Origin: a bacterium
Lineage (GTDB): Bacteria; Patescibacteriota; Minisyncoccia; Moranbacterales; GWC2-37-73
NCBI GenBank assembly: GCA_003251635.1
Contig: QKEW01000017.1
Coordinates: 1-59,582 of the forward strand
Length of the DNA stretch: 59,582 nucleotides
Direction of reading: 5' to 3'
The notes under the pieces were generated by a model, which did no database searches, was not told the DNA's origin, and saw only the letters and a program-made list of their open reading frames with translations. The translations under genes were made by a program, and so were the position numbers. Of the stretch, positions 27,142 to 48,843 are shown one piece after another (the stretch's first letter is position 1; every line of letters begins with the position of its first letter).

Positions 27142-27213
27142 TGGCTGGGGATAAGGGACTTGAACCCCCATCTTCGACTTTGAGGTCGACGCTCTAGCTT
27201 AAGCTAATCCCCA
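27142..27213 (-). tRNA. tRNA-like gene with encoded CCA and a Gln-like acceptor (U1-A72, G73); the anticodon loop is irregular and the gene may be a pseudogene
   Basis: Manual fold: acceptor TGGGGAT/ATCCCCA + G + CCA, T-arm GGGGG-TTCAAGT-CCCTT. The anticodon stem TCGAC/GTCGA encloses only 6 nt (CTCAAA), and the D-loop lacks GG. Confidence 0.45.
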
Positions 27214-27235
27214 GCAAACCTTGAATTTGATTTGA

Positions 27236-27310
27236 CGCGCCCAGTGGGATTTGAACCCACGTCCCCGCCGTGAAAGGGCGGTGTTATGAGCCAAGCTAAA
27301 CAATGGGCGC
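27236..27310 (-). tRNA. tRNA-Glu (anticodon UUC)
   Basis: Manual fold: acceptor GCGCCCA/TGGGCGC, anticodon stem CCGCC/GGCGG with loop CTTTCAC, and a GGTTCAAATCC T-loop. No CCA is encoded. Confidence 0.85.
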
Positions 27311-27330
27311 GCAAAATCTGAATTTTGATT

Positions 27331-27404
27331 TGGAGTGGGAAATCGGATTCGAACCGACGACTTCTTCCTCAAGGGAAGCACTCTTACCGCTGAGTTATTC
27401 CCAC
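27331..27404 (-). tRNA. tRNA with encoded CCA; anticodon uncertain (UUG/Gln if the loop is CCUUGAG)
   Basis: Manual fold: acceptor GTGGGAA/TTCCCAC + T + CCA, D-arm ACTC-AGCGGTAA-GAGT (Gln-like), T-arm GTCGG-TTCGAAT-CCGAT. The anticodon arm CTTCC-CTTGA-GGAAG gives either a 5-nt loop or a 7-nt loop with C33. Confidence 0.6.
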
Positions 27405-27871: not shown

Positions 27872-28795
27872 CTAGGGAGTTATAGAATTTAAATCTATAT
27901 CCATATATTTCTCGTGGGATTTCTTGGCTTCTTCATCGCTCAAAACTCCAAGATAGTGACGGCTGGTGGTTTGCAAGTCTGAGTGCCCCAACAATATCTG
28001 AATCTGACCCAAACCCACACCCCTCTTAAGCAAGGTAGTGGCGAAACTTCTACGCAATGTATGAGCCGTGCATCGCTTGGAAAGACCTGACTTTCTAACA
28101 TAATTCCTGAAATTACGCTGGGCATCATTCCTATCCCAACGCCTGTGACTTTTGCTTTCTGCCACAAATACAAACTTATATCTATACTCTCTTTTTTTCA
28201 GGTAATCCCTAATGCATTGATTAGACCACTCAGTAAAATATATTTTTCGTTCCTTATTCCCCTTTCCAATTATTGTTGCTTCTTTATTTGTAAAATCTAT
28301 ATCCTCAATTTTCAGGTTAAGTGCTTCGCTAATTCTGCAACCAGTCGAAAATAAGACTGCAAATAATGCTCTGAATCTGAGGTCTCTTAAGCTTCTCGTT
28401 CCTATGGAATTGAAAAATTGCCTGAGTTCATCTTCTGTAAGGTATTCCACTTTGTGCTTAGGTATCTTTGGTCGTTTTATTTTCTCAGCATCCATTACTC
28501 GCAGATTCAACTCTCCTTTGCAAAATCTCAACAGGTTTCTTAATATGGAAAAATTGTGTGCTCTGGTACTGGGACTCAAATTTCTCCTGCTATATTCTTG
28601 CCTAAGTCTGAGTATATGTCCCTCATTGAGCTTTTCCATTTTCAAGTCTCCTAATATATCCAATGTCCATCTCAATGTCTTACTATATTCATAAATTGAA
28701 GCAGGAGCCATTTCTAGCTCCAACTCACAATAATCAAGATATAGCTTGCTAACTTCACTTAATTTTATTGAATTTTTCCTGTTAAAAAATAACAT
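27872..28795 (-). CDS. tyrosine recombinase/integrase (XerC/D-like)
   Basis: 307 aa with an N-terminal SAM-like domain. The catalytic region reads TGCRISEAL, GKGNKER, HTLRRSFAT and LLGHSDLQTTSRHY. Confidence 0.92.
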   Translation of the reverse strand: MLFFNRKNSIKLSEVSKLYLDYCELELEMAPASIYEYSKTLRWTLDILGDLKMEKLNEGHILRLRQEYSRRNLSPSTRAHNFSILRNLLRFCKGELNLRVMDAEKIKRPKIPKHKVEYLTEDELRQFFNSIGTRSLRDLRFRALFAVLFSTGCRISEALNLKIEDIDFTNKEATIIGKGNKERKIYFTEWSNQCIRDYLKKREYRYKFVFVAESKSHRRWDRNDAQRNFRNYVRKSGLSKRCTAHTLRRSFATTLLKRGVGLGQIQILLGHSDLQTTSRHYLGVLSDEEAKKSHEKYMDIDLNSITP

Positions 28796-28815
28796 CGGAT
28801 TTCATAGTTTGTCCG

Positions 28816-28843
28816 ATGTTAGCTTGCGTGCAGATTAAGTCAA
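28816..28843 (-). promoter_or_regulatory. promoter TTGACT-N16-TAACAT with a conserved GCTTGCGTG spacer box
   Basis: The -35/-10 hexamers have a 16-nt spacer, about 20 nt upstream of the integrase ATG. The module is paralogous to 30876-30903. Confidence 0.55.
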
Positions 28844-28857
28844 ATTCAGTTGTCCGC

Positions 28858-29958
28858 TTATCTTTTATTTTGAATTTTACTCTTCTTTTTCAAATTACCT
28901 TCGGCTAATCTTTTCAAATCTTCCTCATTTTCAACCCCTTTCAACCTCCCGGATAAGAAACCCAGTTTATAGCTAATGCCATCACTCATAATTCTCCAAT
29001 TGGTACTAGCCAAGGTTTTCTTAACAAGTGTCTGAAAATCCTGAACACTAACCATCTTCTCTCTGCCAATCTTGTTATCTTGCAAGCCAAAGCCGAGAAC
29101 TACATCTTTTAGAATTTCTGGCTTCTCAAACTCCAAATTACTGAAGCCATTTTTTTCAAGAACAGGATTCAAAAGGTTTTGCAATTCAATTATTGTAAGT
29201 TTCTTTATTTTTGAAATTTCGTCATAAAGCTCAGTATTCTCTTCTTTTTCTTTCATCTCATCAACCAACTGCTTCATACTCTCCAAATGCCCTCTTTCAG
29301 CTAAATAACTTATACCATCTTCGGTTGATAGACAATATTTTTTGCGATTAGCTTCAAAATCTTCATCAACATCATCTTCAGATTTTCTATCCAAATCCAG
29401 TGACTCCACCTCCTTGTAGTTGCAATCTGAACAAAAGTATATTGTTTCAATAATATTACCTTTTCTTTTATGCTCGGACTGCAAATAAGATTTGCATTTC
29501 GGACAAGGATTAGACCTTGGCTCCCATTCTTTGCCATTTTCCCAATAAGCTCTACGCTTACTACATTTTTCACATTGAAACATAAATACCACCTCGTCCT
29601 TGCCATTAGTATAGCCCATTAAATCACGAGAGATGCACTTCATTTTCAGAGAACTACAACCGATACAACGCACACCCTTTGGTTCGTGAGCATTTTCCAG
29701 TTTCTTATCTAATTCTCTATCTCTTTCCATCCATTCCTGAATTGTCTTGTCTTTATCGTAATGCCTTTCACCTTTCATAAAATACAGTGAGGTTGGAGCA
29801 ACACACGCCTCAAAAAACTCCTTTTTGAATTTAGCCACATTTTCATCTTTATCCTCCAACGACTTAAGACCATCACTTTTTTCTAACGACTTGCATCGGT
29901 CAATTGTGATTTTGTCGTAAAGCTCACTATAATAATTATAATCTTTCAAATTTTTCAT
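28858..29958 (-). CDS. hypothetical protein with two CxxC...CxxC zinc-ribbon pairs
   Basis: 366 aa with CIGC...CEKC and CPKC...CSDC. Its start overlaps the Macro gene stop by 4 nt. Confidence 0.6.
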
Positions 29959-30875: not shown

Positions 30876-30903
30876 ATGTTAGCTTCGTGGTGAATAAAGT
30901 CAA
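30876..30903 (-). promoter_or_regulatory. promoter TTGACT-N16-TAACAT with a conserved GCTTCGTGG spacer box
   Basis: Same architecture and about 30 of 38 nt shared with 28806-28843. The box TTAGCTTCGTGG also occurs at 49756-49767. Confidence 0.55.
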
Positions 30904-30909: not shown

Positions 30910-32178
30910 TTATGCACTGTCAAAGGATAATCCGCTCTGCTTAAGAAAGTCATCGACAACATCTTCCCTGATATCTTCAAATCCTAAATCCCAATAAATT
31001 TCTCTCAACAAATTTATAAAGTATTTTTTCAAATCTTCCCCATTGTTTAAAATATTAGTATCAATTTTTATATCCCAACTACATTCAGCAAGTAGACACT
31101 CTCTATCTTTTTCCCAAAAATCACGACCTGCGGGTGTTAATTGCCTTGCAAATGCATCATCTAAACCAGTCAGATTTATTTTTCCTACTAACACTCCGCT
31201 GTAACCATATTTATTATAAAATTTCTTGGCAAATTGAAATACACCGAAAATTCTAACGGCTATTCTCCAAAGGCTTACTATTTTAAATCCAGTATCTTCA
31301 CTTAATACTGAAACAGTAAATTTATTTTGAATTAGTCCTTGACTAAAAATTTGCTGAAACTCAATTAAATTGTTGTGTTTCAGGAAGGTGAAAAACATAA
31401 TTCCTTTTGGTGAAGGTATTACATTCAATTCAGGAAATGTAAAATTTCCATTTTTAAATCTAATCTCATCAATTCCATTTTTTATTTCTTTTGGGTTAGC
31501 AAATGATTGTTTTGGAAAAAATGGCTGGATAGTTATCTCACACATAGAAATATCTGTGACAAGAAATCTTCTGCTTTTAAAAATCACCTCCTCGCCTGCT
31601 TTTCTACTTTCTCTTATTATCTCATCTTCTTTCTTTAATACTTTTGCGTCAAAAATTTCATCAGCCATTGATAGGTATACTTTTCTGGACTTTTCAGCTT
31701 TCTCTTTCTTTCCAAACATAAGCTCCAACCCATCTGGAGAAGCAAGGTCTATTTGCTTTGTAATATTTCCAGTCCTGATATAGACATTTGAATCGTTTTG
31801 CACATAATAAGGAGTATTATCTCCTGAAAAAACCCTAACTAAAATAAAGAATTTATCATTTTTTGAATCTGTGGCGTGAACAACGCAGGAAGGAAATGGC
31901 TCAATATTTGCTATTTCTTGATGTAATTTTTCTATTTGCTTCGCATCAGTATCTATGCCATTCCAGTTTTTCGGAAATCCCGTTTTAATATCTTCCTCCA
32001 CTCCAATTATAATTACTCCGCCCCTACTATTGGATAAAGCCACTATATGTTTTGATAATCCTTTTGAAGAGTAATCCCGCTTATAATCAATTTGAAATCC
32101 TTCTCTGTATCCCTTTTCACAAAATGCAACGACATCTTCGAATTTAAAAGATTCAATTGGCTTGTTTAATATATCCAT
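30910..32178 (-). CDS. Schlafen/AlbA_2-domain protein with an uncharacterised C-terminal half
   Basis: 422 aa. The N-terminal pattern ESFKFEDV...IDYKRD...KHIVALSNSRGGVIIIGVEED is typical of the AlbA_2 (divergent AAA/Schlafen) DNA-binding domain. Confidence 0.7.
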   Translation of the reverse strand: MDILNKPIESFKFEDVVAFCEKGYREGFQIDYKRDYSSKGLSKHIVALSNSRGGVIIIGVEEDIKTGFPKNWNGIDTDAKQIEKLHQEIANIEPFPSCVVHATDSKNDKFFILVRVFSGDNTPYYVQNDSNVYIRTGNITKQIDLASPDGLELMFGKKEKAEKSRKVYLSMADEIFDAKVLKKEDEIIRESRKAGEEVIFKSRRFLVTDISMCEITIQPFFPKQSFANPKEIKNGIDEIRFKNGNFTFPELNVIPSPKGIMFFTFLKHNNLIEFQQIFSQGLIQNKFTVSVLSEDTGFKIVSLWRIAVRIFGVFQFAKKFYNKYGYSGVLVGKINLTGLDDAFARQLTPAGRDFWEKDRECLLAECSWDIKIDTNILNNGEDLKKYFINLLREIYWDLGFEDIREDVVDDFLKQSGLSFDSA

Positions 32179-32184
32179 CTTAGG

Positions 32185-32532
32185 TTAATCCTTATGTTTT
32201 AATAATGACTCGTTTTCAAAATGGGTAACTTTTCCAGTTTTTTTATCAATCACTTTTTGATAATAAGTTTTGTTTTTCTTATCAATTCTCCTTTCTTCAA
32301 TAACCCCTTCAGGATACTTCTTCATATCGCCACTGCTCTTATGCCTTGAAATAAATTCAACCATAAAATTTTTGAACCCTTTGACTTTTTGCTTTATACC
32401 AAAGTTTTCCGTAAAAATGGCGGAGTCGGTAATTGTAACTTTATACAACTTACTCTTACTACCACAGTTTGGACAAACTGAATTTCCATTAGGAAGTTTA
32501 GTTTCGCACTTTTTACATAAAATTTCTTTCAT
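32185..32532 (-). CDS. zinc-ribbon protein
   Basis: 115 aa with N-terminal CKKC-x11-CPNC. Gaps to the flanking genes are 6 and 13 nt. Confidence 0.55.
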   Translation of the reverse strand: MKEILCKKCETKLPNGNSVCPNCGSKSKLYKVTITDSAIFTENFGIKQKVKGFKNFMVEFISRHKSSGDMKKYPEGVIEERRIDKKNKTYYQKVIDKKTGKVTHFENESLLKHKD

Positions 32533-32545
32533 TGGCTTTCGTATT

Positions 32546-33889
32546 TTATAAACTTTGTTTAGTGATTACATTCTCATCAATAACAACGGTGCAGATGGCA
32601 TAAGCTAAAACATTTCTGGTTTGGTCATCAACACCGAAACACTCTACGAAATGGCTACCTCTAAAAACAGCACTCTCAGTTAAATTTAATGTATTATTTC
32701 TATTGATTTCTCCTCTTAATTGCTTGGCTCTTGTAGCCTGTTCGCCAGTGTTTGTAACCTTATAAAAATATTTGGTTATTTTAGATTTAGTGTGATTAAC
32801 GGGTGATAAAAATTTAGCTTTAAATTTAATCTTGTCATTCTTGTTTAACCTGACAATGCCACTTTTGTAATCTTCTGATTCTTCATTCTTAATGGCAGCA
32901 ATATAAAACATCGGGCTAGTCAATCTATTGATTGCCGAGCTATAACCATATGCTTCTATAAATTCTTCTCCTGACACAAGCCTGTGAAATATTCCTATTA
33001 ATTCCTTCTCACCTTCCACTTTTTTTATTTGTTCAACTAACACTAAAGCACATCTCGCTGCTAATCTAATCAATTTCTTCTCATTCTCATTTAATTCATC
33101 AATATAATCATCCACATATTTATTTCTCGCTCTGTCTGGAAATTGCCTTACACTTATAAATCCATTTATATTTCTAAAAAATAATTCCGCTAAACCAGAA
33201 ATGTCCATTTCGCTATTTTCTGAAATAAGTTTTTGCACAATCAGTTCTAAATGAAAAGATTTTAGCTTAAATTCTATACCCTTAAAGTTTCTTTTATTTT
33301 TCCAAGAGTTTCTCCACGCCTTCAGTAATTTTGCAGTCTTCCTAAAATTGGACGATTCTTCGTTTATTATTTTAGCTAATTCTATATAACCCCAGGGGTC
33401 GGTTTTAATCCATTTAACATCATTTTGCAAATTAACTTCTGGTATTGCATATATAGGTTTACCAAATTCATTAAACTGTTCTAGTTCACGAGCTGGAACA
33501 ATATCAATTTTAAAATCTCCCTCTTTATCTACAAATTCAATTTTCACAGAACGCGTTTGCGTCTTTGCCTTTATTTTTATTCCTAATATTTTGTATTCGG
33601 CTTCCAGTTTTTCTACCAAATCATTCAGTATATTATTTAAATTCAAATCTCCTGAGGAAATTTGCCTCTTTGATTCTTCAGGTAAAACCCAAATCACATC
33701 CAAATCATTTAGGGGCGTGATAGCGGTGAATCTGGCATATGAACCACTTTGAAATATTTTCCCTTCCAATATCTTACTTAATCTCTCGTATTCTTGCTGA
33801 ACAAAAATCTTTTCTTCCTTTGTTGGGGAATGAAAATCTCTTACAAATAAAGAGATGGGATTTCCAGCTTTTTTTTCACTATTTATCAT
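32546..33889 (-). CDS. SMODS/CD-NTase-like nucleotidyltransferase with a beta-rich C-terminal extension
   Basis: 447 aa with a Pol-beta fold triad: GS (SGSYARF), DLD (NDLDVIWV) and a third acidic residue in FKIDIVPA. This is followed by IKTDPWGY...TAKLLKAWRN, as in SMODS/CD-NTases. About 140 aa of unassigned C-terminal domain remain. Confidence 0.7.
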   Translation of the reverse strand: MINSEKKAGNPISLFVRDFHSPTKEEKIFVQQEYERLSKILEGKIFQSGSYARFTAITPLNDLDVIWVLPEESKRQISSGDLNLNNILNDLVEKLEAEYKILGIKIKAKTQTRSVKIEFVDKEGDFKIDIVPARELEQFNEFGKPIYAIPEVNLQNDVKWIKTDPWGYIELAKIINEESSNFRKTAKLLKAWRNSWKNKRNFKGIEFKLKSFHLELIVQKLISENSEMDISGLAELFFRNINGFISVRQFPDRARNKYVDDYIDELNENEKKLIRLAARCALVLVEQIKKVEGEKELIGIFHRLVSGEEFIEAYGYSSAINRLTSPMFYIAAIKNEESEDYKSGIVRLNKNDKIKFKAKFLSPVNHTKSKITKYFYKVTNTGEQATRAKQLRGEINRNNTLNLTESAVFRGSHFVECFGVDDQTRNVLAYAICTVVIDENVITKQSL

Positions 33890-34370
33890 AATTCATAGTT
33901 ATAACTGACATAATTATATCTCCCAACAATCTGTTTCTAAAATTAACAACGTTAGTGTGTTTATATTTCTGAAGCTTGTCCATTATCTGAACATCTCCAG
34001 GTTTTGCATAAATAATAAGAGCCTTCTTATCATTTTTCTTTTTTAAAACTTCGTCAATATCATTACCCCAATCTGACCAATCCAATAAAAATATGGAAGC
34101 GCCCTCTGAAGACTCCACGTCACTGACTGAAGAAATTTGAATTATATTTTTTTCTTTAAAAAGATTTGCTCCAACGAGTAAATTTTTTAAATCGGAAAAA
34201 CCATTAGTCGCAAAAATTGCAATTTTTCTTCCACGTAACCCATTACCAAGCCTCAATAACACAAGTTTAATACCGAACATCCATTGAATAAAAGCCGAGA
34301 TTATTTTTATAGCCAACAATGTTGCTGTGACATAACCAATAACAGTTAAAAAACTTTTTATTATTTCCAT
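33879..34370 (-). CDS. N-terminally membrane-anchored protein with a small alpha/beta domain (candidate partner/effector)
   Basis: 163 aa with a hydrophobic helix (FLTVIGYVTATLLAIKIISAFIQWMF), then alternating beta-alpha segments (KIAIFA, IFLLDW, ALIIYA). It overlaps the NTase start by 11 nt. Confidence 0.55.
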   Translation of the reverse strand: MEIIKSFLTVIGYVTATLLAIKIISAFIQWMFGIKLVLLRLGNGLRGRKIAIFATNGFSDLKNLLVGANLFKEKNIIQISSVSDVESSEGASIFLLDWSDWGNDIDEVLKKKNDKKALIIYAKPGDVQIMDKLQKYKHTNVVNFRNRLLGDIIMSVITMNYDK

Positions 34371-34380
34371 ATGATATTGA

Positions 34381-34584
34381 TTATTTTTTCCTATTATACG
34401 GACTCTGATTTGTGGGTTTTAAACTGATTTTATTCTCACTAGCCTTTATCTGAACAGCATTTTCAGTTCTTCCCAATTTCAATCCAATTACTCTTGTGGG
34501 TGTATTCTTTTTTGCCAGTGATTTTAATTGGGAGACTTCCTTAGCATTCCAAGCTTTTCCACTGTTTCTATTGTATTTTGCCAT
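34381..34584 (-). CDS. small GcrA/Myb-like HTH protein
   Basis: 67 aa. The pattern W..KEV.QLK.L....T....IGLKLGRTENAVQIKA resembles the GcrA N-terminal DNA-binding motif. Confidence 0.4.
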   Translation of the reverse strand: MAKYNRNSGKAWNAKEVSQLKSLAKKNTPTRVIGLKLGRTENAVQIKASENKISLKPTNQSPYNRKK

Positions 34585-34614: not shown

Positions 34615-35277
34615 TTACACTTTTAAAACATCTAGCACTTTACCATTTATAATCAAATCATCTTCAGGGGTAAGATATATAGGCAAGAAATCTTTATTTT
34701 TTGACTGCGGAAACAAGCCGATTTTATCTTCTTCCAAATATCGCAATAGCTTAATTGTCGCTAGCCCATCAAGGATGGCAAGCACTGGAATGTTACTGTC
34801 GCCAAAGGCTGGTTTATAATTAGAATCAATTAAAACGTAGTCTCCATCCTCAATATTTTTCCCCTTCAATCTATAATCATTCATTGAATCTCCTGAAGCC
34901 TGGACGGCGAAAACATTTTTCGTGCTATTCCCTAATAATCCTCTTGAAACTTTAAGTGTTCCCTGCTTGTATTGTTCAGCAAAAATATTCGCCACACCGC
35001 AATTTGCACTCCCATAAATCGGGACATCTGCAAACATCATTTTTGACGCATCAAGAATTTCAATCGCCCTGGTTTCTGGATTTCTTCTTACCAATCCTTT
35101 TTTCTCAAGGTCATCAAGATACATAAAAATACTCCTTGGACTTTTAAGTATCAATCCGAAAGATTTTACAGCTTCCTGTAATTCTCGTATAGACGGCATT
35201 TCTCCGTATTTTGCATAAAATTTCTTTAATGCTTTAAATACTATATCCTGTTTTCTATTAAGTTCTTGCATATTCAT
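34615..35277 (-). CDS. lexA: LexA-type / S24 peptidase-family repressor
   Basis: It has an N-terminal wHTH (PSIRELQEAV...YLDDLEKKGLVRR) and a C-terminal S24 domain with GDSM serine and a downstream K (TIKLL). The ORF extends to 35337, but MNMQELN at 35277 fits the promoter and terminator positions. Confidence 0.82.
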   Translation of the reverse strand: MNMQELNRKQDIVFKALKKFYAKYGEMPSIRELQEAVKSFGLILKSPRSIFMYLDDLEKKGLVRRNPETRAIEILDASKMMFADVPIYGSANCGVANIFAEQYKQGTLKVSRGLLGNSTKNVFAVQASGDSMNDYRLKGKNIEDGDYVLIDSNYKPAFGDSNIPVLAILDGLATIKLLRYLEEDKIGLFPQSKNKDFLPIYLTPEDDLIINGKVLDVLKV

Positions 35278-35305: not shown

Positions 35306-35333
35306 ATAATACAGCATTCTGAAATTTTGTCAA
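35306..35333 (-). promoter_or_regulatory. promoter TTGACA-N16-TATTAT for the lexA-like gene
   Basis: A consensus -35 and a near-consensus -10 on the minus strand. CTGTAT-containing partial palindromes overlap and follow the -10. Confidence 0.6.
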
Positions 35334-35335: not shown

Positions 35336-35358
35336 AAAAAGCAGGGGACGCCCCCTGC
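35336..35358 (-). terminator. rho-independent terminator GCAGGGGG-CGT-CCCCTGC + TTTTT
   Basis: GC-rich perfect stem followed by a T-run on the minus strand, downstream of the methylase gene. Confidence 0.7.
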
Positions 35359-35433
35359 TAAACTTCATTCTCGCTATAATTTTAGTTATATCCCCCTATC
35401 GTCTCCCAAACTCATACTTATTTATATATATCA

Positions 35434-38987: not shown

Positions 38988-39848
38988 TCAACCTATTTTT
39001 GCCAGCCTCACCTCCTTTCTGAGCCTGGATTTGGCTATATGCAAATATCTCTCCGTTGTCGATATGTTCTTATGTCCTGCCAATATCTGTATGGATTTGA
39101 GATTCACTCCTTTTTCCAAAAGCCGAGAGCAGAAACTGTGTCTAATCGAATGCACAGATATGTTCGTCTTTAAAATTTCTGCTTTTTTGAAATATTCCTG
39201 AACCAGCATTCCCACCCTTCTCTGGGTTATTCTTTTCTTGAAACTGCTCATAAACATCGGTTCCCGCATATCTCTCCTATCTACAAAACTTTTAATGCTT
39301 TTTGCCAACTCCGAATTTATGGGGATACTTTGCTTCTGTCCTCCCTTTCTTTTGACCGTTATTATCCTATTCGCATATTCCGCATCCGATATATCCAAAT
39401 TTACAAGTTCGGAAATGCGAATTCCCGTTTCAATGAGAATCCTTATTATCAGTTCGTTTCTTTTTTGATGCTTGGACTTATCATCTCTGACACTCTTAAT
39501 TAACTTTTTCAATTCCGACTCGGTAAGATAGCTCGGCTCTTTTTCTTTAACTTTCGGCATCGCGATATTTTTGACAGGACTATCTTGAATCAACCTCTCA
39601 TCTTCCAGAAATGCGAAGTAGTTCTTAATGGAAGTAAGCTTTCTTCTTCTGGTTATGGGCTGGTTTTTCTTTTCCGATAAAAAACACAAAAAGCCACGAA
39701 TGTGGCTCCTTGCTAATTTGTTAACTGACGTCTTTTTTGTGATTTTTTGGAACTCCAGTAAATCCCTCTCGTACACCTCAATGGTCTTTTCGCTAAGTCC
39801 CTTCTCAATGCGAAGATGTTCCAAATATTGTGATAAATGCTTTTTCAT
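38988..39848 (-). CDS. tyrosine recombinase/integrase (XerC/D-like)
   Basis: 286 aa with TGIRISEL, RKGGKQ, HSIRHSFCS and LAGHKNISTTERYLH. Confidence 0.92.
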   Translation of the reverse strand: MKKHLSQYLEHLRIEKGLSEKTIEVYERDLLEFQKITKKTSVNKLARSHIRGFLCFLSEKKNQPITRRRKLTSIKNYFAFLEDERLIQDSPVKNIAMPKVKEKEPSYLTESELKKLIKSVRDDKSKHQKRNELIIRILIETGIRISELVNLDISDAEYANRIITVKRKGGQKQSIPINSELAKSIKSFVDRRDMREPMFMSSFKKRITQRRVGMLVQEYFKKAEILKTNISVHSIRHSFCSRLLEKGVNLKSIQILAGHKNISTTERYLHIAKSRLRKEVRLAKIG

Positions 39849-39890
39849 AATGCGTATCTCCTACCTTGTGACACACATTACCTTGCAATG

Positions 39891-40376
39891 CTAAATGAAG
39901 TCAACTCGCTGAATTTCCTCGAGAACTTGCCTGACTTTAACTATAGTTCTGGAGTTCGTGACTTCTTGCAGATTAACCCTGTCACTGGCAACCTTATGGA
40001 TTTCCTGCCTCGGTCCATCTTGTATGAAATAGAATTCCACATCTCCGTTGAAGAAAAACTTAGAATCTATATATCTGACAATGGCTTGCTCATTTATAGA
40101 CTCCAATAAATCGAAGACTAATAGTAATTGCAAATTGTCATAATTTTCAGCCTCACATTCAACATAAACCACGTCGTCTTTCTCGTGAAACTCAAAATCG
40201 CAATTGATGATACTTTTTCCACTTTTATCTAATATCTGCAAAGTGGCTTTATTTTCGTTTTCGACAAGCTTATGTAAATCGTGCTTATATTTTGAATTGC
40301 GTTTTTTGGCGTTAACCAGATTATGCAAAAACTTTTCTTTACTGATTGGTTTTAGAAACTTGAATTTAATACCCAT
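39891..40376 (-). CDS. hypothetical protein
   Basis: 161-aa ORF in the phage-like module. No motif recognised. Confidence 0.45.
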   Translation of the reverse strand: MGIKFKFLKPISKEKFLHNLVNAKKRNSKYKHDLHKLVENENKATLQILDKSGKSIINCDFEFHEKDDVVYVECEAENYDNLQLLLVFDLLESINEQAIVRYIDSKFFFNGDVEFYFIQDGPRQEIHKVASDRVNLQEVTNSRTIVKVRQVLEEIQRVDFI

Positions 40377-40493
40377 ATTTTTTTGAAATTAAAATAAATT
40401 AAAGGATACATAACATACATTATGCGAACATTCTGAAAATCAGATAAAACACCAAGGCAAATGTTCCGTAGCCGAAGATGTTTCCAATTATGC

Positions 40494-42032
40494 TCATAGG
40501 CTTCTGTTTTTTCTCCACTCTTCAAGCTCGCGAAGCGTGGGAAGATTATTATTAGGAATTATTGATTCTTTTACTCTTTCCTCTTTAACCTCTATTATTT
40601 TCGGACCGTGCAATTTTTCATTTCTTTCTTGCATCATAAATTCATCGAATGTCTGACCGCCCACAACCAAAAACCCTGCTTCTTTCTTATCTTCTTGCAC
40701 TGCATACATTGACGCCATTCCAAGACTAACACTATGGTCTGAAAATCCTCCGCTCTTATGGTCAATCCTCCAGCCATATGATTTCTCTTCGGCATTAAGA
40801 CTCAGCAGTTCCTCTTCCAATAGCTTGTGAGGAAAAATCCTGATAAGGCCATTGTGAAATAGATAGTATAAATTCTGAGAGAGTTTTTGGATTGAATTGG
40901 ACGTGAACGTGAACTCTTCGACTTTTATAAGCCTCTTGAGTCTTTCCGCTGTTCCCTTCATCTGCCAAGGGTCGAATATGTTCTTCACGATATTGAAGCT
41001 TCTGTTGCAAGCAAGAATTGCCTCCTCTACATCGCTTATGAGAACCGGGTTTGTTTTGGTTCCTTGAAAAGTCCTGATGTAATCTAAATAGACCAGATTA
41101 TCTTCTTCGCTTCTGTGGCACACCGTAAGCACGGTTCTGTCCCTTGTCAGCCCTAAGTCTACCGCCAAATAATATCTTATTTCACCTCTTCCACTGAGTT
41201 GAGGTTTGAGAGTATGGTCGGTGCATTTATCCAATTCTTCTTTCGTGATAAATGCGTTTTCTCCAGCCACCCATTTGTTTTCGTGAAGCCTTTGATATAC
41301 CCCTGCAGGAAGCCTCATTCTCTGTTGCTCCAGATATTCTTCACTTACCCAGCTGGAGAGATTCTTCTCTGACCAGAAAAAATACATCTTCCCATCTTTC
41401 TTTTGCACTCCGTCTTTATATAATTCATACAAGAGCGAGGTCTGGTCGGTGCCCGCATAAGTTACGATGAATGTAAGCGGCTCTTTCCTAACTGGAGATT
41501 GCGTGAGGGCGTCATACAAATCACGATTCGGCTGGTTCCAGAGTTCATCGAATATGACACAACTGGCGTTCAATCCGTGACTAGTCGGTGCGTCTGCAGA
41601 GAGAACTTTGTAAATCGAATTTGTACTTGGAACCATAATTTCGTCTTTATAAATCTTCACCGATTCCAAAAGGATTGGATTTCGCTCAATAGCTTTCTTG
41701 GTCATATTGAAAATAATTTTCGCCTGGTCTTTATCTCCTGCGACAGAATAAACTTCAGCATTTGAAACATCGGCAAAAAGCATATACAGAGCCACTCCCG
41801 AAGCCAAAGTCGATTTTCCGTTTTTCTTCGGTATTCCCAATAAGGCAAGATTGTACTTCCTCAGCCCCTTTTTGTCTTTGGTTTGGAATATATCCCTGAG
41901 AATCTTTTTCTGAAAATCCTGAAGCACAATCGATTTTCCATCTTCGAGAATATATTGTTCTTCAAGAAATACGCAGATGTCTTTCTTGTATTCAATGAGC
42001 TTCTCTCTTGTGATTGGACTAATCTTCTTCAT
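40494..42032 (-). CDS. terL: phage terminase large subunit
   Basis: 512 aa with a Walker A-like GIPKKNGKST and Walker B VIFDELW. The C-terminal nuclease region with conserved acidic residues is typical of Terminase_1-type TerL. Confidence 0.82.
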   Translation of the reverse strand: MKKISPITREKLIEYKKDICVFLEEQYILEDGKSIVLQDFQKKILRDIFQTKDKKGLRKYNLALLGIPKKNGKSTLASGVALYMLFADVSNAEVYSVAGDKDQAKIIFNMTKKAIERNPILLESVKIYKDEIMVPSTNSIYKVLSADAPTSHGLNASCVIFDELWNQPNRDLYDALTQSPVRKEPLTFIVTYAGTDQTSLLYELYKDGVQKKDGKMYFFWSEKNLSSWVSEEYLEQQRMRLPAGVYQRLHENKWVAGENAFITKEELDKCTDHTLKPQLSGRGEIRYYLAVDLGLTRDRTVLTVCHRSEEDNLVYLDYIRTFQGTKTNPVLISDVEEAILACNRSFNIVKNIFDPWQMKGTAERLKRLIKVEEFTFTSNSIQKLSQNLYYLFHNGLIRIFPHKLLEEELLSLNAEEKSYGWRIDHKSGGFSDHSVSLGMASMYAVQEDKKEAGFLVVGGQTFDEFMMQERNEKLHGPKIIEVKEERVKESIIPNNNLPTLRELEEWRKNRSL

Positions 42033-42567
42033 AATTCAATTCGCTCAATGCTTTTGCTAAGGAATATGTCTGAGCTATATTCAATCCCACTCTTGCTCTG
42101 GCATCGGGAGAAAGACAGAGCTTGTCAGCGAGTTTTATAAGTGTCTTCTCGTCTTCATTCCTAGCTCTTGTTATAGGCTGTACGTTTATGGAATCATCAC
42201 TGATTCTGAAGTTTCCAGCTATTTCACCAAGCCATCTATCAATTACCATAAGCCTTGCTTGCACGTGAGCAAATCTGTAGACCAAATATTTATCCTGCTC
42301 CCTTATGTGTGGAAGAGAAAATATTTCTTCCACAATTTCCTTTTGATAGTTCAAAGCTGGAACGCAGTCGCCTTTTTCGTTTTTCGAGTACTCACATTTG
42401 GAACTAAAAGGACACAATTCACAGGACATCGCGATACGATTCGGGTGATTTTTAAAATAGTGATAGGAATGTTTAACTTGCGGTTTTAGATTACTTTTCA
42501 CCGCCTCAATTCCCTCTTCACTAAAGTTCCGAACTGCTGTCTGTTTTTTTATTCCTTTTTCGCTCAT
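42019..42567 (-). CDS. terS: phage terminase small subunit (P27-like)
   Basis: 182 aa. The C-terminal KLADKLCLSPDARARVGL resembles the P27-family signature. It overlaps the terL start by 14 nt. Confidence 0.55.
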   Translation of the reverse strand: MSEKGIKKQTAVRNFSEEGIEAVKSNLKPQVKHSYHYFKNHPNRIAMSCELCPFSSKCEYSKNEKGDCVPALNYQKEIVEEIFSLPHIREQDKYLVYRFAHVQARLMVIDRWLGEIAGNFRISDDSINVQPITRARNEDEKTLIKLADKLCLSPDARARVGLNIAQTYSLAKALSELNYEED

Positions 42568-42575
42568 TTTTTCAG

Positions 42576-43190
42576 TTATTCCTTTAGATTAGCTGAACAT
42601 AGATTAAATAATTTCTCTCCTTTGCTCTTTCCACTGTGCTTATTTAACACCTTGTTAATAGTTATCTCCTGCTCTTTTGAGACTGCGAAATTCATTACGA
42701 TTGGAATTTCTCTTTCCCTCTCCTCAGCATCTTTTTTGATTTTCTCCATAAACTCTGGCGTCACCTGCATCAAAGATAGCTTGTCTTTTAAATCGTTGAC
42801 TTTGAATCCGAGTTTTGTCGAAAGCTGTTCCAGAGTAAATTTCTTATTAAGCTCTGAAATTAAACTGGCTAGCTTTAATGGATTCATTTCCCCTCTCTTG
42901 GAATTAAGAGCTATCGTTAAAATTTTCTGATGCTCCTCCGATTCTGGCTTAAAAACCACAACGGGTATTTCTTTCATTCCTAAAGCCATTCCAGCTTTCC
43001 AACGATGAAATCCGTCTATTATTTCCAACTTGTCATTAACCACCACTGGCTGACCAATCCAGCCGTTTTCTTCAAAATCGGCAACAAGGCTATCAAATTG
43101 CTCATCGCTCATTTTGTTTGGGTTGTATTTATTTGGATTAACCTTTAATGGGTCAACCATTTGGATATTTGAATATATTTTTTCCGTCAT
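42576..43190 (-). CDS. ParB N-terminal-domain (ParB/Srx-like nuclease) protein
   Basis: 204 aa with NPNKM...GWIGQPVVV...IIDGFHRWKA, a DGxHR-type motif. Confidence 0.72.
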   Translation of the reverse strand: MTEKIYSNIQMVDPLKVNPNKYNPNKMSDEQFDSLVADFEENGWIGQPVVVNDKLEIIDGFHRWKAGMALGMKEIPVVVFKPESEEHQKILTIALNSKRGEMNPLKLASLISELNKKFTLEQLSTKLGFKVNDLKDKLSLMQVTPEFMEKIKKDAEEREREIPIVMNFAVSKEQEITINKVLNKHSGKSKGEKLFNLCSANLKE

Positions 43191-43191
43191 A

Positions 43192-44265
43192 CTATTTAGT
43201 CACTATTAAATATTCCACGTTTTCGCTTTGCCTCTTTCCTGTTTTCGATGCGATGTTATTTATCGCCCAAGAATGCTCCATTTCGTATAAGTCAGCATCC
43301 CTGAATTTCTGAACCACACTTAGTAATTCCTCGCCTTTTATGCCAGCATCAGACGCGGGATTATATCCCATTGATATTACCCACTTAGGAATCCATTCCG
43401 AAAGAGAAAATAATCTCTCGAAGTTTTCTAAGGTGTCTTTAACATTGAATGCCTTGTCATCTATTTCCACTCCCCTTTTTTCTTCCAATATCTCATCGAG
43501 TATTTTGTAGTGAGCAGAATATACGGTTGAGTTGAAGTATGGACTGTCGAAATATGCCGTGTCGATTTTATTTCCTTTTTCTTTCAACATCTCCAGCAAT
43601 TCAAAACAATCCATCTGATAAACTTCGTTTTCTTTTCCGTTATTGAACACTCCGTAATTTATCTGGTCTTTTAGTTTTAGCAATAACGGCAAAGGGTGTG
43701 AGATGTTATATCTAACCTTTTTACCCCGAGATTCACTAGCCATTTCCAGTAGCTCAATTTCTTGATTTTCAATAAGCATCTCGTTGTCTTGTCTGCCCAC
43801 CTGAAAAGCCCCGTATTGCCTGAGACTAAGAATATATTTTGTCAGCAACAGTAACAGTAACTCTTTTTTCGGACTTTCCCTGTTTCTGGCGTTTTCAAAT
43901 GCCATATCAAGAAACTCGGCAACCTGAGGAATAAAAATTTGCGGAACATAATTTTTCTGAATGAATCCAGCATTCTCATTGAAAACAAATAAACTATACA
44001 CGTCTTCTTCCGTGATTTTTTCCGTTTGATTTTTAATCAACGCTTCACCGATTATCTTTGAGCGATAAGCGATATCATTTGCCAATACCCTCATTCCCAC
44101 TTTCTTTCCTTTAAGAGAAACGGAACCTCCTCCCATAAACACGTCCAGCAATGTTTCTCCCTGAAAATGAGATGCGATGATTTCTGCCATTTTCCTTTTA
44201 CCACCGAGAAATGGCACTGTAGCATCAAATGATTTAAGATTCTTTGACATCTTCTTTTTCTTCAA
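43192..44265 (-). CDS. Dam-family (D12 class) DNA adenine methyltransferase, phage-type
   Basis: 357 aa with PFLGGKRKMA, DVFMGGGS and the YFDSPY catalytic motif. It lies adjacent to the ParB-like gene, as in many phages. Confidence 0.75.
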   Translation of the reverse strand: MKKKKMSKNLKSFDATVPFLGGKRKMAEIIASHFQGETLLDVFMGGGSVSLKGKKVGMRVLANDIAYRSKIIGEALIKNQTEKITEEDVYSLFVFNENAGFIQKNYVPQIFIPQVAEFLDMAFENARNRESPKKELLLLLLTKYILSLRQYGAFQVGRQDNEMLIENQEIELLEMASESRGKKVRYNISHPLPLLLKLKDQINYGVFNNGKENEVYQMDCFELLEMLKEKGNKIDTAYFDSPYFNSTVYSAHYKILDEILEEKRGVEIDDKAFNVKDTLENFERLFSLSEWIPKWVISMGYNPASDAGIKGEELLSVVQKFRDADLYEMEHSWAINNIASKTGKRQSENVEYLIVTK

Positions 44266-44476
44266 GGTCGTTTAACAAGTACTTACAGGCCAAACCTATC
44301 GCTTTCGGTTTTCCAGTAATTCCGAATTTCTCATCAAGCACCCTTTCCAATTCTCGAATTACTTCTTGTTGTTCCTGCCAAAGGAAGATAAAATCTTGCT
44401 GTCCTTTTTTGCTGACAATTTTAATATCAGCATTGCTTATTTTTTCCGCCAACGTTTCTTTTTTACTTTTGCTCAT
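44234..44476 (-). CDS. hypothetical small protein
   Basis: 80-aa ORF that overlaps the methylase start. Confidence 0.4.
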   Translation of the reverse strand: MSKSKKETLAEKISNADIKIVSKKGQQDFIFLWQEQQEVIRELERVLDEKFGITGKPKAIGLACKYLLNDLEEKEDVKES

Positions 44477-44537
44477 AATTCTACTTTTTAGTTAGTTAAT
44501 TACTCTTTACTCCTTACTTTTTGAAAATGTAGTGTCA

Positions 44538-44900
44538 TTATTTTTTATTGCACGACATTTTCTTTAATCTTAAATAATTAGATTTTAATCCCTCATATTT
44601 TTTTAATAATTTCATTCGTCTTTTTAAGGCTGTTTTCAATGGAACCCTAGACTTAACAAGAGTATTAAACAATCTTGAATAACGAATTTCCATATACTCA
44701 TCAACTGGCACACTCAAATCTTTTTCCATTCTCCTCAAAAATATTTCCCAGTTTTTCAGTGCTTCTTTCACACTCTCATATTCACCAAGCGATATGACGT
44801 TTTGTCTGACTTTATTGCCTTTCCTATAAGCCTCGACTACCTGATATCTTTCTGATATTTCACCCTTTTTGAGACTTATAATTCTTTTCCTGACGAACAT
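44538..44900 (-). CDS. hypothetical basic protein
   Basis: 120-aa ORF, 1 nt from the upstream ORF. Confidence 0.45.
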   Translation of the reverse strand: MFVRKRIISLKKGEISERYQVVEAYRKGNKVRQNVISLGEYESVKEALKNWEIFLRRMEKDLSVPVDEYMEIRYSRLFNTLVKSRVPLKTALKRRMKLLKKYEGLKSNYLRLKKMSCNKK

Positions 44901-44901
44901 T

Positions 44902-45099
44902 TCACATCTTTTCTAGGTCAAACTTATAATCTGGTCTTTTCGGATTTTCGTGTTTGAAGATGTTCTCGAACACTACCAGCTTATATTCCTGACCATTGAC
45001 TTCGACTGTACCTGTCAGATAGATGTTTCCGCCTTTGGAAGACTTTTTCCACAAAGCACATTTTTCTATCTGAGGCAGATTCTTTTCGCCTTGTTGCAT
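44902..45099 (-). CDS. small DUF736-like protein
   Basis: 65 aa. GNIYLTGTVEVNGQEYKLVVFEN...KRPDYKF resembles DUF736 proteins of plasmids and ICEs; this is a weak call. Confidence 0.35.
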   Translation of the reverse strand: MQQGEKNLPQIEKCALWKKSSKGGNIYLTGTVEVNGQEYKLVVFENIFKHENPKRPDYKFDLEKM

Positions 45100-45117
45100 A
45101 TTATTTAAATTAAAAAA

Positions 45118-46029
45118 TTAGCTTCTTTTTCTCACCCAGCCTTTTTCTTCATACACCCACGCATCAAACTCTTCATTGCTGGAGTTTATGAAATCGATTC
45201 CGTGTTCGAGTCTCATCATATCGCAAAAATTTTCCAGTTTTCCCACACCTATCTCAAGCTCTACAGGATTTGTTATGTTAGGAGCATATTTGAAAAATCT
45301 CGCCCTCTTTGATGCCTTTATGAGTCCAGCCAATCTTTCTTCGCCAAGTGTCGAAAATAGTCTTTTTGCAGATTCTCGCTGAGAAGAACTCCCAATTAAA
45401 ACTGAAATCATAGGATTAACCTCTTTAAAGGCATAGAAGATTTTATCGATTGCTTTATCTGAAATCTCAGAAAAATCAAAGTGGGGCTTACAATCGTTTG
45501 CGATTGTAGATATATTTTTTTTACTACTTAAAGCATTTACCTTATTAGCACTTAAAGCATTTGTCTCCTGTTTTCCACTTGTTGGATTTTCTACTTGTTG
45601 AATTTCGGGGTTCTTGAATTCCTCTATCGTGATTTCATTCGGAATCTCATTTAATTCCTTTTTAATTAGCAAACTTTCAACTTCTTCAGCTTTTTCAGTT
45701 TTCCAGATATATTTCAGCTTTATATACCAACCCACGATTTTTCCGCCCTCTCTACGCATAATTATTTCGATTAAATTCATTCTTTGAAGAAGTGTCTTAG
45801 CTTTTGCAAATCTTCCCTTACCCCAGCCCAATCCCCTCATACAATAACTGTCACTGGCTTTAACTTGATTTGTTTTTTGCCATTTAGCCACATAACAGTA
45901 AAAACAATAGAGGGCTACTGCATCCGCACCGTTTTTAAATTGATATAGATTATGAAGCGTTCTTGTTGTCAGCAATACAACTTCGTCTTCAAGCATTATT
46001 TTAGGTTTAGTTTCAGTTGATTTTTGCAT
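45118..46029 (-). CDS. putative replication/wHTH protein
   Basis: 303 aa. Its N-terminal region is typical of phage/plasmid replication-organiser wHTH proteins (ADAVALYCFY...GLGWGKGRFAKAKTLL). The repeat-rich non-coding region lies upstream of it. Confidence 0.4.
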   Translation of the reverse strand: MQKSTETKPKIMLEDEVVLLTTRTLHNLYQFKNGADAVALYCFYCYVAKWQKTNQVKASDSYCMRGLGWGKGRFAKAKTLLQRMNLIEIIMRREGGKIVGWYIKLKYIWKTEKAEEVESLLIKKELNEIPNEITIEEFKNPEIQQVENPTSGKQETNALSANKVNALSSKKNISTIANDCKPHFDFSEISDKAIDKIFYAFKEVNPMISVLIGSSSQRESAKRLFSTLGEERLAGLIKASKRARFFKYAPNITNPVELEIGVGKLENFCDMMRLEHGIDFINSSNEEFDAWVYEEKGWVRKRS

Positions 46030-46109
46030 ATTTGCTTACAGAAAAAGGGCTACACGATGAGAGAATAGCCCTTTTACCATACTCATCGTTAAAATTTGTT
46101 ATAAAAAAA

Positions 46110-46167
46110 TCCGCAATACAGTTAAACATACAAGAGTAAATCTTGCGTGCTCGCATTGTATTGCGGA
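46110..46167. repeat. 11-bp inverted repeat TCCGCAATACA / TGTATTGCGGA, followed by reiterated (CG)ATTGT(ATT) motifs
   Basis: The arms lie at 46110-46120 and 46157-46167. ATTGTATT/ATTGTG motifs recur at about 46155, 46178 and 46195. Confidence 0.6.
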
Positions 46168-46334
46168 CTTCTGACCGATTGTATTCGGCGATATTCGATT
46201 GTGCCTTAATTATACTCTTCATAGTCTATATGTCAATACTTTATGGCTCAAATAAAGCATTTTACTTTATTGTCAAGTTATTGTTCAACTGACTCGTGAT
46301 TGGGAAGCAATAATATTGCCACCCAACCCACCAA

Positions 46335-46844
46335 TCAATTGGGGCATACGCATTCAAAAAATCCTTCGGGATAAAACAATTCTTCTTCGTCCACTTCTAT
46401 CCTATTGTTTTGAATCAACCACATAAGTGCCATATAAAGATTATGTTCATCAAGTTCAGCAAGAACAAGTAGTTCATCAAAGGAACTGGCAGGAAAAAGT
46501 CCTATAGTGGCACAAAGATATTCGGCATCATTATCAAATTTTTCCTTGGACATTCCCCAATTCCTAAGATGTACTTCATAATTATCGAGGGTTATTCTAT
46601 TTTTGAAATATGCTTTCCCATTGGTTACGCCCGCTAACTTTACCGCTTCAGTCATAGTAAGTAGCGACATCGCCTGAATCACCTCGATTTCCGACAACCT
46701 TGTAGCTTTCTTCAAATCAGGTATGGACATTAAATTTGGTGATTTCTCCATTACTTCAATAACTTTCTTAAGTGATTTTCCCCTCTTTTGAATCATTTTA
46801 GCTTTTTTTTCAAGAGCGTTTGCTTTTTTAATTTCTTTTTTCAT
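46335..46844 (-). CDS. hypothetical protein
   Basis: 169-aa ORF. No motif recognised. Confidence 0.45.
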   Translation of the reverse strand: MKKEIKKANALEKKAKMIQKRGKSLKKVIEVMEKSPNLMSIPDLKKATRLSEIEVIQAMSLLTMTEAVKLAGVTNGKAYFKNRITLDNYEVHLRNWGMSKEKFDNDAEYLCATIGLFPASSFDELLVLAELDEHNLYMALMWLIQNNRIEVDEEELFYPEGFFECVCPN

Positions 46845-46935
46845 TTTTTTATTGTTACTTTGTTTATTACTCCTTTTATAGTTGATTGCCGATTATGGGC
46901 ATTTGCGAAGTGTTTCAACTTTTCAAACATTCACG

Positions 46936-47898
46936 TCATTTTTGCGCCACCTCCTTTCCAGGTTCATTTTCTATATTGAAACCGCCCATTATTTCCTTAT
47001 GCACTCTTTCTACCTCAGAAAAACTGGTGTTGCCCAGATAATATCTTTCAGTCACAGATGGAGTTGCGTGTCCTAAAAATCTCTGTACGACTGATAAACT
47101 GGCTTTTTGATGGAAAAGCAAACTCGCACTGGACCTACGTAGCAAATGAGGGTGTATACTTATCTGAAATCCAGCACGCTTTCCCTGATTTCTAAGAGCA
47201 CGCTCCAAATCATTTATTTGCCATCTCTTGGGAGAATCTGTATTTGCAGTAACAAACAAAGCTGGATTGTTATCGATTCTCATCGCCAAGTATTTTTCTA
47301 TATAACCGATAGCCAATTCGTTAAAAATCAATGTATGCATTTTCCCTCCCTTTGCTAGAACCTGAGCTTTTCCATTTTTAAAATCAATATCCGAGATATC
47401 GAGCCTTATCAATTCACTCACCCTACAAGCACTGGAAATTAGACAGATAACAGCTGTTTTCAATCTCAATCTCGATATATTTTCTTCGGATATGGAATCT
47501 ATCAGTTCTTGCAACTGCTTTTTGTTTAAATGAATAATCTGCTTGGCTGGAATTTTGAATTTTTTAATAAGATTAGGATTGTATATTTTTATGCCATCAT
47601 CTCTTAAGCACTGAAGTATATTCTTAAGAACAACGAGATAATGATTTTTTCTGGAAGCACTTAGGGGGCAGCCAGTTTTCTCGGATTTCATCAGATTTAA
47701 TTTTTGCTTTAGATTCATAACGGTATCCCCATCAAACTTTTTAATTTTCACATCGCCCAATAAACTCAATAAGCCATTTGATATTTCCCTATACTTCTCA
47801 ATCGATTTTTTAGACAGCAAAGCATTCGCCTCCAATTTGGCGAAGTAACGTTCAGATGCTTCTGAAAATGTTAAGTTGTTGAAAAACGGGAAATTCAT
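46936..47898 (-). CDS. tyrosine recombinase/integrase
   Basis: 320 aa with SACRVSEL, AKGGKMH, HPHLLRRSSAS and FLGHATPSVTERYY. Confidence 0.9.
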   Translation of the reverse strand: MNFPFFNNLTFSEASERYFAKLEANALLSKKSIEKYREISNGLLSLLGDVKIKKFDGDTVMNLKQKLNLMKSEKTGCPLSASRKNHYLVVLKNILQCLRDDGIKIYNPNLIKKFKIPAKQIIHLNKKQLQELIDSISEENISRLRLKTAVICLISSACRVSELIRLDISDIDFKNGKAQVLAKGGKMHTLIFNELAIGYIEKYLAMRIDNNPALFVTANTDSPKRWQINDLERALRNQGKRAGFQISIHPHLLRRSSASLLFHQKASLSVVQRFLGHATPSVTERYYLGNTSFSEVERVHKEIMGGFNIENEPGKEVAQK

Positions 47899-48790: not shown

Positions 48791-48843
48791 CTATATAAAA
48801 TCTATATTTACTATAATTTTACCACAAATTTTTCTATCCGAAA

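Follow-up and report, generated by a model that had tools for sequence, protein, structure and literature searches.

Do five closely spaced genes on a bacterial contig encode one new nucleotide-signalling defence system, or do they belong to separate modules that lie side by side? The genes occupy positions 30910-34584 on the minus strand of contig QKEW01000017.1 (GenBank assembly GCA_003251635.1), whose 59,582 nucleotides, from a Patescibacteriota genome, are here called the window. Working from the letters of the sequence, a first-pass annotation had proposed that all five genes form a single non-canonical system built around a nucleotidyltransferase. Our analysis indicates that the region is very probably a string of separate defence modules within one variable island, bounded by a LexA-like repressor and a tyrosine integrase. 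We are confident that these modules are a two-gene antiphage signalling system based on cyclic oligonucleotides (CBASS) and an adjoining independent Schlafen gene, with two generic regulators upstream, the LexA-like repressor and a 67-aa helix-turn-helix (HTH) protein termed HTH67; they are of known kinds and not a new type of system. Domain identities, catalytic motifs and gene co-occurrence were computed directly; the ligand, the effector mechanism, SOS control and the activity of the Schlafen protein are what we infer.

Five genes in a tightly spaced island

The five minus-strand open reading frames (ORFs) were confirmed at 34381-34584, 33879-34370, 32546-33889, 32185-32532 and 30910-32178. 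Their lengths in operon order are 67, 163, 447, 115 and 422 aa, and the gaps between them, from HTH67 to the Schlafen gene, are 10, -11 (an overlap), 13 and 6 nt, just as first annotated. All five ORFs are real genes, and each has homologues elsewhere. Tight spacing is not peculiar to these genes: gaps of 15 nt or less make up 35% of the same-strand gaps in the window. The run of tight gaps extends upstream to the LexA-like gene (30 nt) and downstream through the genes for a HAD-like protein, a Macro-domain protein and a 366-aa protein, with overlaps of 4 nt each. In this window, tight spacing does not discriminate for shared function. Domain scans upheld the genomic context that had been described, namely a LexA-like/S24 repressor, a restriction-modification system, which is a complete one of DpnII type, and a Macro-domain gene, and confirmed the tyrosine integrase. 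The setting is a defence island with swapping cargo in a Patescibacteria-like genome.

For finding relatives, peptide-pattern searches were replaced by alignment-based and exact-protein look-ups; neither the cyclase alone nor the LexA-like protein alone had given matches in pattern searches of GTDB genomes. The relatives' loci were coded L001-L173. Among these, L093-L172 are the metagenomic HTH67 set, and the set for the effector and cyclase includes L012-L080.

The cyclase and effector genes

The 447-aa protein (32546-33889, minus strand) had been recognized as a SMODS-type cGAS/DncV-like nucleotidyltransferase (CD-NTase), and this identity holds. The protein matches Pfam SMODS at 38.6 bits, against a cut-off of 26.5, and the PADLOC Cyclase model PDLC00785 over its full length at 6.6e-68. 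Across 37 relatives, the catalytic positions G49-S50, D62xD64 and D129 never vary. Identity to most relatives is only 30-45%. The region of the catalytic motifs aligns to CdnD (6p8u), and in a search with the family profile the closest solved structures were CdnD and CdnC, at 1e-16. The C-terminal part, previously left as an unassigned beta-rich domain, was identified as Pfam AGS_C (residues 325-437, 6e-16, above the Pfam cut-off), and the gene encodes a fusion of CD-NTase and AGS-C. According to a preprint on type I CBASS, about 40% of type I CD-NTases carry such a fusion, and no other CBASS type does.

The 163-aa protein (33879-34370, minus strand) had been described as an N-terminal transmembrane (TM) helix followed by an alpha/beta domain. 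Its AlphaFold model (predicted local distance difference test, pLDDT, 80) bears this out, with an N-terminal helix at residues 2-46 and then a five-stranded alpha/beta domain. The companion claim, that the classic CBASS partners are absent and the system non-canonical, was overturned: the PADLOC model “Effector 1TM” (PDLC00664) covers residues 6-163 of 163 at 8.7e-47. “1TM” is among the CBASS effector classes of Millman et al. 2020, according to two later papers. We annotate the protein as a CBASS 1TM effector, in which the membrane helix is joined to a flavodoxin-like (Rossmannoid) putative nucleotide-sensor domain. Basic residues cluster after the TM helix, and therefore the alpha/beta domain should be cytoplasmic. 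Within the motif NFRGRLLND, N143, R145 and R147 are invariant. The family is present in 130 GTDB species from many phyla, and the window adds a Patescibacterial example of this mechanistically uncharacterised group of effectors.

More specific assignments of the sensor domain were also tried. Neither Foldseek nor PDB profile searches supported a CARF, SAVED, STING or TIR identity. A TIR-like NADase role was rejected, as no conserved catalytic Glu occurs among the invariant residues.

Co-occurrence was examined in 85 other cyclase/1TM loci, and 80 1TM loci were fetched, none of which contains the zinc ribbon or the AlbA_2 protein. SMODS is the adjacent gene in 54 of the 80 1TM loci (downstream in 49/67, upstream in 5), and AGS_C is present in 22 of the SMODS genes that lie downstream of 1TM. 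The adjacency and overlap of effector and cyclase are kept across relatives at 35% to 83% identity, and the identical overlap of 11 nt recurs in L001, L002, L093 and the P0007 contig. Cyclase relatives with 79% and 60% identity are found in L001 and L002, respectively, and the metagenomic L093 is a further locus of this kind. These three loci share the LexA-like gene (75% identity), HTH67 (80-90%), 1TM (77-83%) and the cyclase, which are followed by unrelated genes and then by the integrase. Genes 3' of the cyclase differ in every relative examined. Cyclase relatives at 35-42% identity keep only the small upstream gene, with a recognisable 1TM homologue in two of three loci. Judged by what travels together, the effector and cyclase are one unit, and the zinc ribbon and Schlafen genes are another unit at most.

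Identity to the window is uneven along L002, where HTH67 is 90%, 1TM 83% and the cyclase only 60% identical. This suggests that the cyclase evolves faster, or has been replaced, within an otherwise conserved module.

By architecture, the 1TM and cyclase genes are a type I CBASS. The known type I systems that combine 1TM with a CD-NTase-AGS-C protein (Millman et al. 2020) have the same two-gene architecture, the same catalytic GS/DxD/D residues, the AGS-C fusion, no accessory genes and a defence-island site, and the models for them match at full length; one difference here is the Patescibacteria-like host. Pfam and PADLOC scans of the neighbours between 27.8 and 42 kb detected no Cap2/Cap3, HORMA/TRIP13 or OGG/TGT/QueC genes. 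The first-pass annotation was thus right that a nucleotide-signalling defence system is present and that the small membrane protein is its partner, and PADLOC already names this core of cyclase and effector as CBASS.

Probable ligand and mode of action of the CBASS pair

The 1TM family occurs both in CBASS and in type III CRISPR, judging from the genes that surround its members, and in this respect it resembles NucC, an effector responsive to cyclic triadenylate (cA3), which likewise occurs in both kinds of loci. A 45%-identical homologue of the window's effector lies at 3989-4498 in L173, a plasmid of Gloeothece verrucosa PCC 7822 (NC_014534.1). It is embedded in a type III-B CRISPR-Cas locus, where it separates cas10/cmr2 and a TIR gene from cas2/cas1. 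Cas10 and RAMP genes adjoin a few further 1TM loci, and PADLOC weakly matches the effector to a membrane ancillary model of type III CRISPR, whose annotation names a diverged CARF as a possibility. The sharing of the family with type III CRISPR is a hint at a cyclic oligoadenylate ligand. Since the cyclase, in addition, is nearest to CdnC/CdnD, we consider, with moderate confidence, a cyclic oligoadenylate, for example cA3, to be the most likely ligand; NucC and the CARF-TM effector offer parallels.

Herein, we outline how the pair would act. Upon infection, the CD-NTase would make a cyclic oligonucleotide, with the Ig-like AGS-C domain thought to tune phage sensing. The signal would bind the cytoplasmic Rossmann-like domain of the single-pass effector, where the arginines of NFRGRLLND probably touch the ligand phosphates, with N143 as a plausible contact. 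The effector would then oligomerise, damage the membrane and abort the infection.

The polarity of such a circuit could also be reversed. In a Panoptes-like guard, the cyclase is always on and its product keeps the membrane effector inactive, so that toxicity is triggered when sponges or nucleases of a phage deplete the signal. Small Rossmann-fold-plus-TM effectors that are controlled by cA3 in this manner do exist, as exemplified by CARF-TM of type II Panoptes (PMC13577387), and a type I CBASS without accessory regulators would suit a guard as well. Both CARF-TM and the 1TM effector join a small Rossmann-like sensor to a membrane segment. However, the 1TM helix is N-terminal, a topology opposite to that of CARF-TM; sequence similarity between the two is undetectable, and structural similarity to CARF is not significant. 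Moreover, the enzyme belongs to the SMODS CD-NTases, carries an AGS-C sensor domain and is no mCpol, and PADLOC places both proteins under CBASS. A guard is very unlikely here, and a type I CBASS in which the signal switches the effector on is the reading that we retain.

The Schlafen and zinc-ribbon genes

The 422-aa protein (30910-32178, minus strand) had been assigned to the AlbA_2/Schlafen group, correctly so: it matches SLFN_AlbA_2 (PF04326) at 55.6 bits and 9e-15. The top Foldseek matches to its AlphaFold model (pLDDT 88) are SLFN14, SLFN13 and the SAMD9 tRNase, and the family profile matches SLFN14 (6.5e-6) and CbCash (7e-5, residues 25-151). Its Ex4(E/D)xK motif reads E26-GFQI-D31-Y-K33, and among 37 relatives E26 and K33 do not vary, with D31 at least 90% conserved. 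By domain and motif, the protein is a prokaryotic Schlafen (pSlfn). The C-terminal ~230 aa are unannotated and contain a confidently modelled alpha/beta domain (residues 212-414). This domain had no significant match in PDB or BFVD, where a TBP-like match at E 0.09 is only a hint, and no match to Csx15, CARF or SAVED structures.

Bacterial Schlafens with the Ex4(E/D)xK motif are single-gene phage defences, fused to diverse sensor domains of which 17% are unannotated (Perez Taboada et al., Nat Microbiol 2026, PMC13056530). The pSlfn of the window shares with them the N-terminal Slfn/AlbA_2 domain and its motif, an unannotated fused domain, the single-gene format and the location in defence islands. 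It differs in that its ~420-aa family, with ~95 full-length relatives, is largely Patescibacterial and in that, in two loci, a small zinc-ribbon gene precedes it. The protein is a candidate stand-alone defence gene, and the comparison brings to light a largely Patescibacterial family of candidate defence nucleases.

The gene upstream (32185-32532, minus strand) encodes a 115-aa protein that had been called a zinc ribbon. The CxxC...CxxC pattern is present; Pfam zinc-ribbon matches stay below threshold. The sole convincing homologue, with 87% identity, is in L091, where the gene again lies 6 nt upstream of an AlbA_2 gene, before the integrase and with no CBASS. The zinc ribbon is best described as a sporadic companion of the Schlafen gene, outside the CBASS. 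A second candidate homologue, in L092, was discarded; it was weak, lay in a housekeeping context and matched in the CxxC motif alone.

If the five genes formed one integrated system, with the HTH protein as regulator, the TM protein and the Schlafen as dual effectors and the zinc ribbon as an adaptor, they should be kept together. The zinc ribbon and the pSlfn gene were each found in 0 of the 85 other cyclase/1TM loci, and the five-gene set was not seen in any other locus, contrary to the five-gene unit that had been proposed. The closest cyclase relatives (79% and 60% identical) have different genes after the cyclase. Conversely, pSlfn occurs without a SMODS gene in six of six other loci (L006-L010 and L091). 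Its neighbours in L006-L010 include AAA_15/21 ATPases, an HD protein, a NACHT-Cap4 nuclease, restriction-modification genes and an integrase, and in L006-L008 it directly precedes the same integrase as in the window. HTH67, in turn, precedes many unrelated cargos. What speaks for integration is the short gaps, between which no terminator is predicted, and the precedent of Cash, a CRISPR-associated Schlafen-Csx15 protein that is a tRNase turned on by cyclic tetra-adenylate (cA4; PMC13462974, PDB 9YLU). Tight spacing, however, is common in this genome. Cash has a detectably similar Schlafen domain and shows that a nucleotide-gated Schlafen can stand beside a signalling system, but the pSlfn of the window has no Csx15- or CARF-like domain, its C-terminal domain matches no SAVED structure either, and its family occurs without a cyclase or type III CRISPR nearby. 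An integrated five-gene system is thus highly improbable.

A narrower proposal confines co-option to this genome, where the Schlafen would serve as a second effector of the CBASS although it works alone elsewhere. Co-transcription with the CBASS is likely, and Schlafen nucleases can be gated by cyclic oligoadenylates, both of which would favour co-option. Against this, the pSlfn of the window is 78-93% identical to the copies in the CBASS-free islands L006, L008 and L091, which leaves little room for a new ligand specificity, and a nucleotide-sensor fold was not detected in its C-terminal half. We regard co-option as very unlikely. Most probably the Schlafen, perhaps with the zinc ribbon, is an independent module, whose C-terminal domain would detect infection and thereby unleash the cleavage of tRNA.

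Several points weigh against separate modules of known kinds. The whole analysis is computational and is based on sequences and predicted models. The zinc ribbon and pSlfn genes are almost certainly co-transcribed with the CBASS (gaps of 13 and 6 nt, no terminator found), and therefore some local functional cross-talk between them and the CBASS may occur. The cyclase falls below the cut-off of 200 in the NCBIfam CBASS-cyclase models (NF041117, 84 bits; NF041116, 63.5 bits); these models cover particular clades, and by the Pfam and PADLOC criteria the protein counts as a cyclase. Its clade placement conflicts, in that the nearest structures belong to clades C and D, yet type I clades C and D are reported to be without AGS-C fusions (preprint on type I CBASS). 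For the effector, Foldseek of the sensor domain returned generic flavodoxin/CheY-like matches, none at E <= 1e-3, and a mechanism for any 1TM CBASS effector was not found in the literature searched. Lastly, a LexA-like gene that is 75% identical also precedes non-CBASS cargo in L008, and the repressor may regulate the island rather than the CBASS itself.

The separation of the modules removes an apparent new signalling system. It illustrates that tight spacing in a compact genome can mislead, and that neighbouring defence modules in swap-prone islands may resemble operons and yet be independent units.

Regulators upstream of the defence genes

The DpnII restriction-modification operon ends in an intrinsic-terminator-like hairpin at 35340-35359 (minus strand; an 8-bp stem with 6 G-C pairs, then a T-run), and an equivalent hairpin and T-run are found at the same place in L001, L002 and L008. 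It is followed by a sigma-70-like promoter, TTGACA-16-TATTAT, at 35306-35333 (minus strand), which agrees with the consensus at 11 of 12 positions and is the top-scoring promoter of the 27.5-38.5 kb region; TTGACA...TATAAT is conserved in L001, L002 and L008. Since this terminator-promoter layout is conserved upstream in relatives, the transcription unit most likely starts at the LexA-like gene.

The LexA-like gene (34615-35277, minus strand) encodes a putative self-cleaving repressor with a LexA winged HTH (wHTH) and an S24 peptidase domain (Pfam LexA_DNA_bind, 4e-9; Peptidase_S24, 2e-15). We call it LexA-like because it does not reach the cut-off of the NCBIfam LexA model TIGR00498 (89.8 against 110.95 bits). 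Homologues of 219 aa that are 75% identical occur in L001, L002, L008 and L093, and given their length the true start is probably the ATG at 35277 and not the TTG at 35337. Among 15 CBASS-adjacent homologues, the cleavage-site Gly94 as well as Ser131 and Lys176 are invariant, and C93 is at least 90% conserved. A by-eye palindrome search for a LexA operator in the promoter region, together with those of L001, L002 and L008, yielded nothing above the AT-rich background.

HTH67 (34381-34584, minus strand) had been labelled a GcrA/Myb-like HTH protein. A regulatory identity is supported by its match to PHROG 323 “transcriptional regulator” (2e-8); no Pfam match was found, and its gene neighbourhoods show that it is not specific to CBASS. 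Its relatives include more than 357 metagenomic proteins at 70-87% identity and 720 representative clusters, and this CBASS was found in only one of 80 metagenomic HTH67 loci. Upstream of HTH67 lie S24 repressors, in 20 of 62 loci with enough flank, or pairs of HTH_3 and Peptidase_M78 genes; M78 partners adjoin HTH67 in seven other loci. Downstream lie ThsB-TIR, AIPR, SMODS with a Cap15 receptor, PLD, AAA_15/21 and PemK genes. HTH67 thus appears as a general companion of damage-type regulators, with defence cargo of varying kinds downstream.

The association also extends to the effector family. Of 78 species-level loci, 21 have an S24 LexA-like gene near 1TM, in most cases within ~1 kb; its orientation is mostly divergent, and co-directional in six. 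The taxa are mostly Patescibacteria but include Syntrophaceae, Bacteroidota and Acidobacteriota, and the association is far above chance adjacency.

The LexA-like repressor and HTH67 probably keep the downstream unit repressed until RecA-type DNA-damage signals trigger self-cleavage, from which we infer an SOS-type derepression of the downstream defence genes. In CapH/CapP and CapW, too, a repressor gene lies directly upstream of the CBASS and derepression on damage is expected. The proteins differ: CapH/CapP combines an HTH protein with an M78 metallopeptidase, CapW belongs to the WYL proteins, and here a single chain carries a LexA-type wHTH and an S24 serine peptidase, would use RecA-stimulated self-cleavage, and is accompanied by the extra 67-aa HTH protein. 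The domain scans found no WYL or M78 matches in the LexA-like protein, HTH67 or their neighbours, and in place of CapW or CapH/CapP the CBASS pair stands behind these two regulators. LexA/S24 regulators of CBASS are not described in the literature searched, which does not prove novelty.

Tentatively, the LexA-like repressor, often paired with HTH67, could be a portable SOS-type switch that brings any downstream cargo under the control of DNA damage, in an integrase-bounded Patescibacterial hot spot where cargo is swapped; this is a possibility to which we give somewhat less than even weight. If it is true, the switch would be a third class of regulator for CBASS and defence islands, beside CapW and CapH/CapP. 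Alternatively, the two proteins may control excision or transfer of the island, in the manner of a prophage CI/Cro switch, and be irrelevant to defence expression. An integrase closes the island, 10 of 20 pairs of S24 and HTH67 genes are divergent like those of CI/Cro switches, and in L008 other cargo follows the same LexA-like gene, all as an excision switch would have it. Yet, in both the window and its relatives, the defence genes share the orientation of the regulators and come directly downstream of them, behind a conserved promoter; S24 genes abut 1TM CBASS in phyla without an integrase nearby; and a separate conserved promoter and leader serve the integrase. We consider an excision switch unlikely. 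LexA-type repressors and HTH67 that recur before CBASS and other defence cargo suggest that abortive-infection genes are expressed in an SOS-coupled manner, and this association with defence cargo is the part of the locus most worth following up.

The integrase and the rest of the window

The variable island is closed by a tyrosine integrase at 27872-28795 (minus strand; Phage_integrase, 1e-37), which is 66-69% identical in L001, L002, L006, L008, L091 and L093. The integrase promoter TTGACT-16-TAACAT and a leader hairpin (28796-28857) are conserved here and in L001, L002, L006, L008 and L091. The hairpin has the arms AACATCGG and CCGATGTT and covers the start codon. A promoter-like copy of TTGACT-16-TAACAT lies at 30876-30903 (minus strand), at the boundary of the unit that runs from the LexA-like to the Schlafen gene. 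This copy lacks the hairpin and precedes the HAD-like gene, and for this reason the block of HAD, Macro and 366-aa genes looks like an insertion that separates the Schlafen gene from the integrase. A search for direct repeats of att sites between 26.5 and 50.5 kb gave none that is convincing, the long repeats being integrase paralogues and promoter copies.

The 366-aa protein (28858-29958), which adjoins the integrase, contains multiple zinc ribbons. A 697-aa homologue (4e-66) is encoded at 8302-10392 of L080, directly after a set of LexA-like, 1TM and cyclase genes, in an unrelated metagenome-assembled genome (MAG).

Beside the integrase lies a tRNA cluster (27142-27404). Its third tRNA, at 27142-27213 (minus strand), scores 54 bits with Rfam and has a 6-nt anticodon loop (CUCAAA), and ARAGORN gave it no identity.

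On the other side of the defence genes, a phage-like remnant spans 38988-50482 and contains a terminase large subunit (40494-42032), a ParB-like protein, methyltransferases and a DnaD-like loader. Three more tyrosine recombinases lie within it (38988-39848, 46936-47898 and 48844-49752), and mobile elements form a mosaic over the whole stretch from 28 to 50 kb. Inside the ORF at 49865-50482, five tandem copies of an 18-nt unit (50222-50329) encode an acidic peptide repeat. Moranbacteria and Parcubacteria MAGs supply the closest relatives of the proteins, and a complete bacterial 16S rRNA gene is found at 51543-53075 (minus strand; Rfam, 1422 bits).

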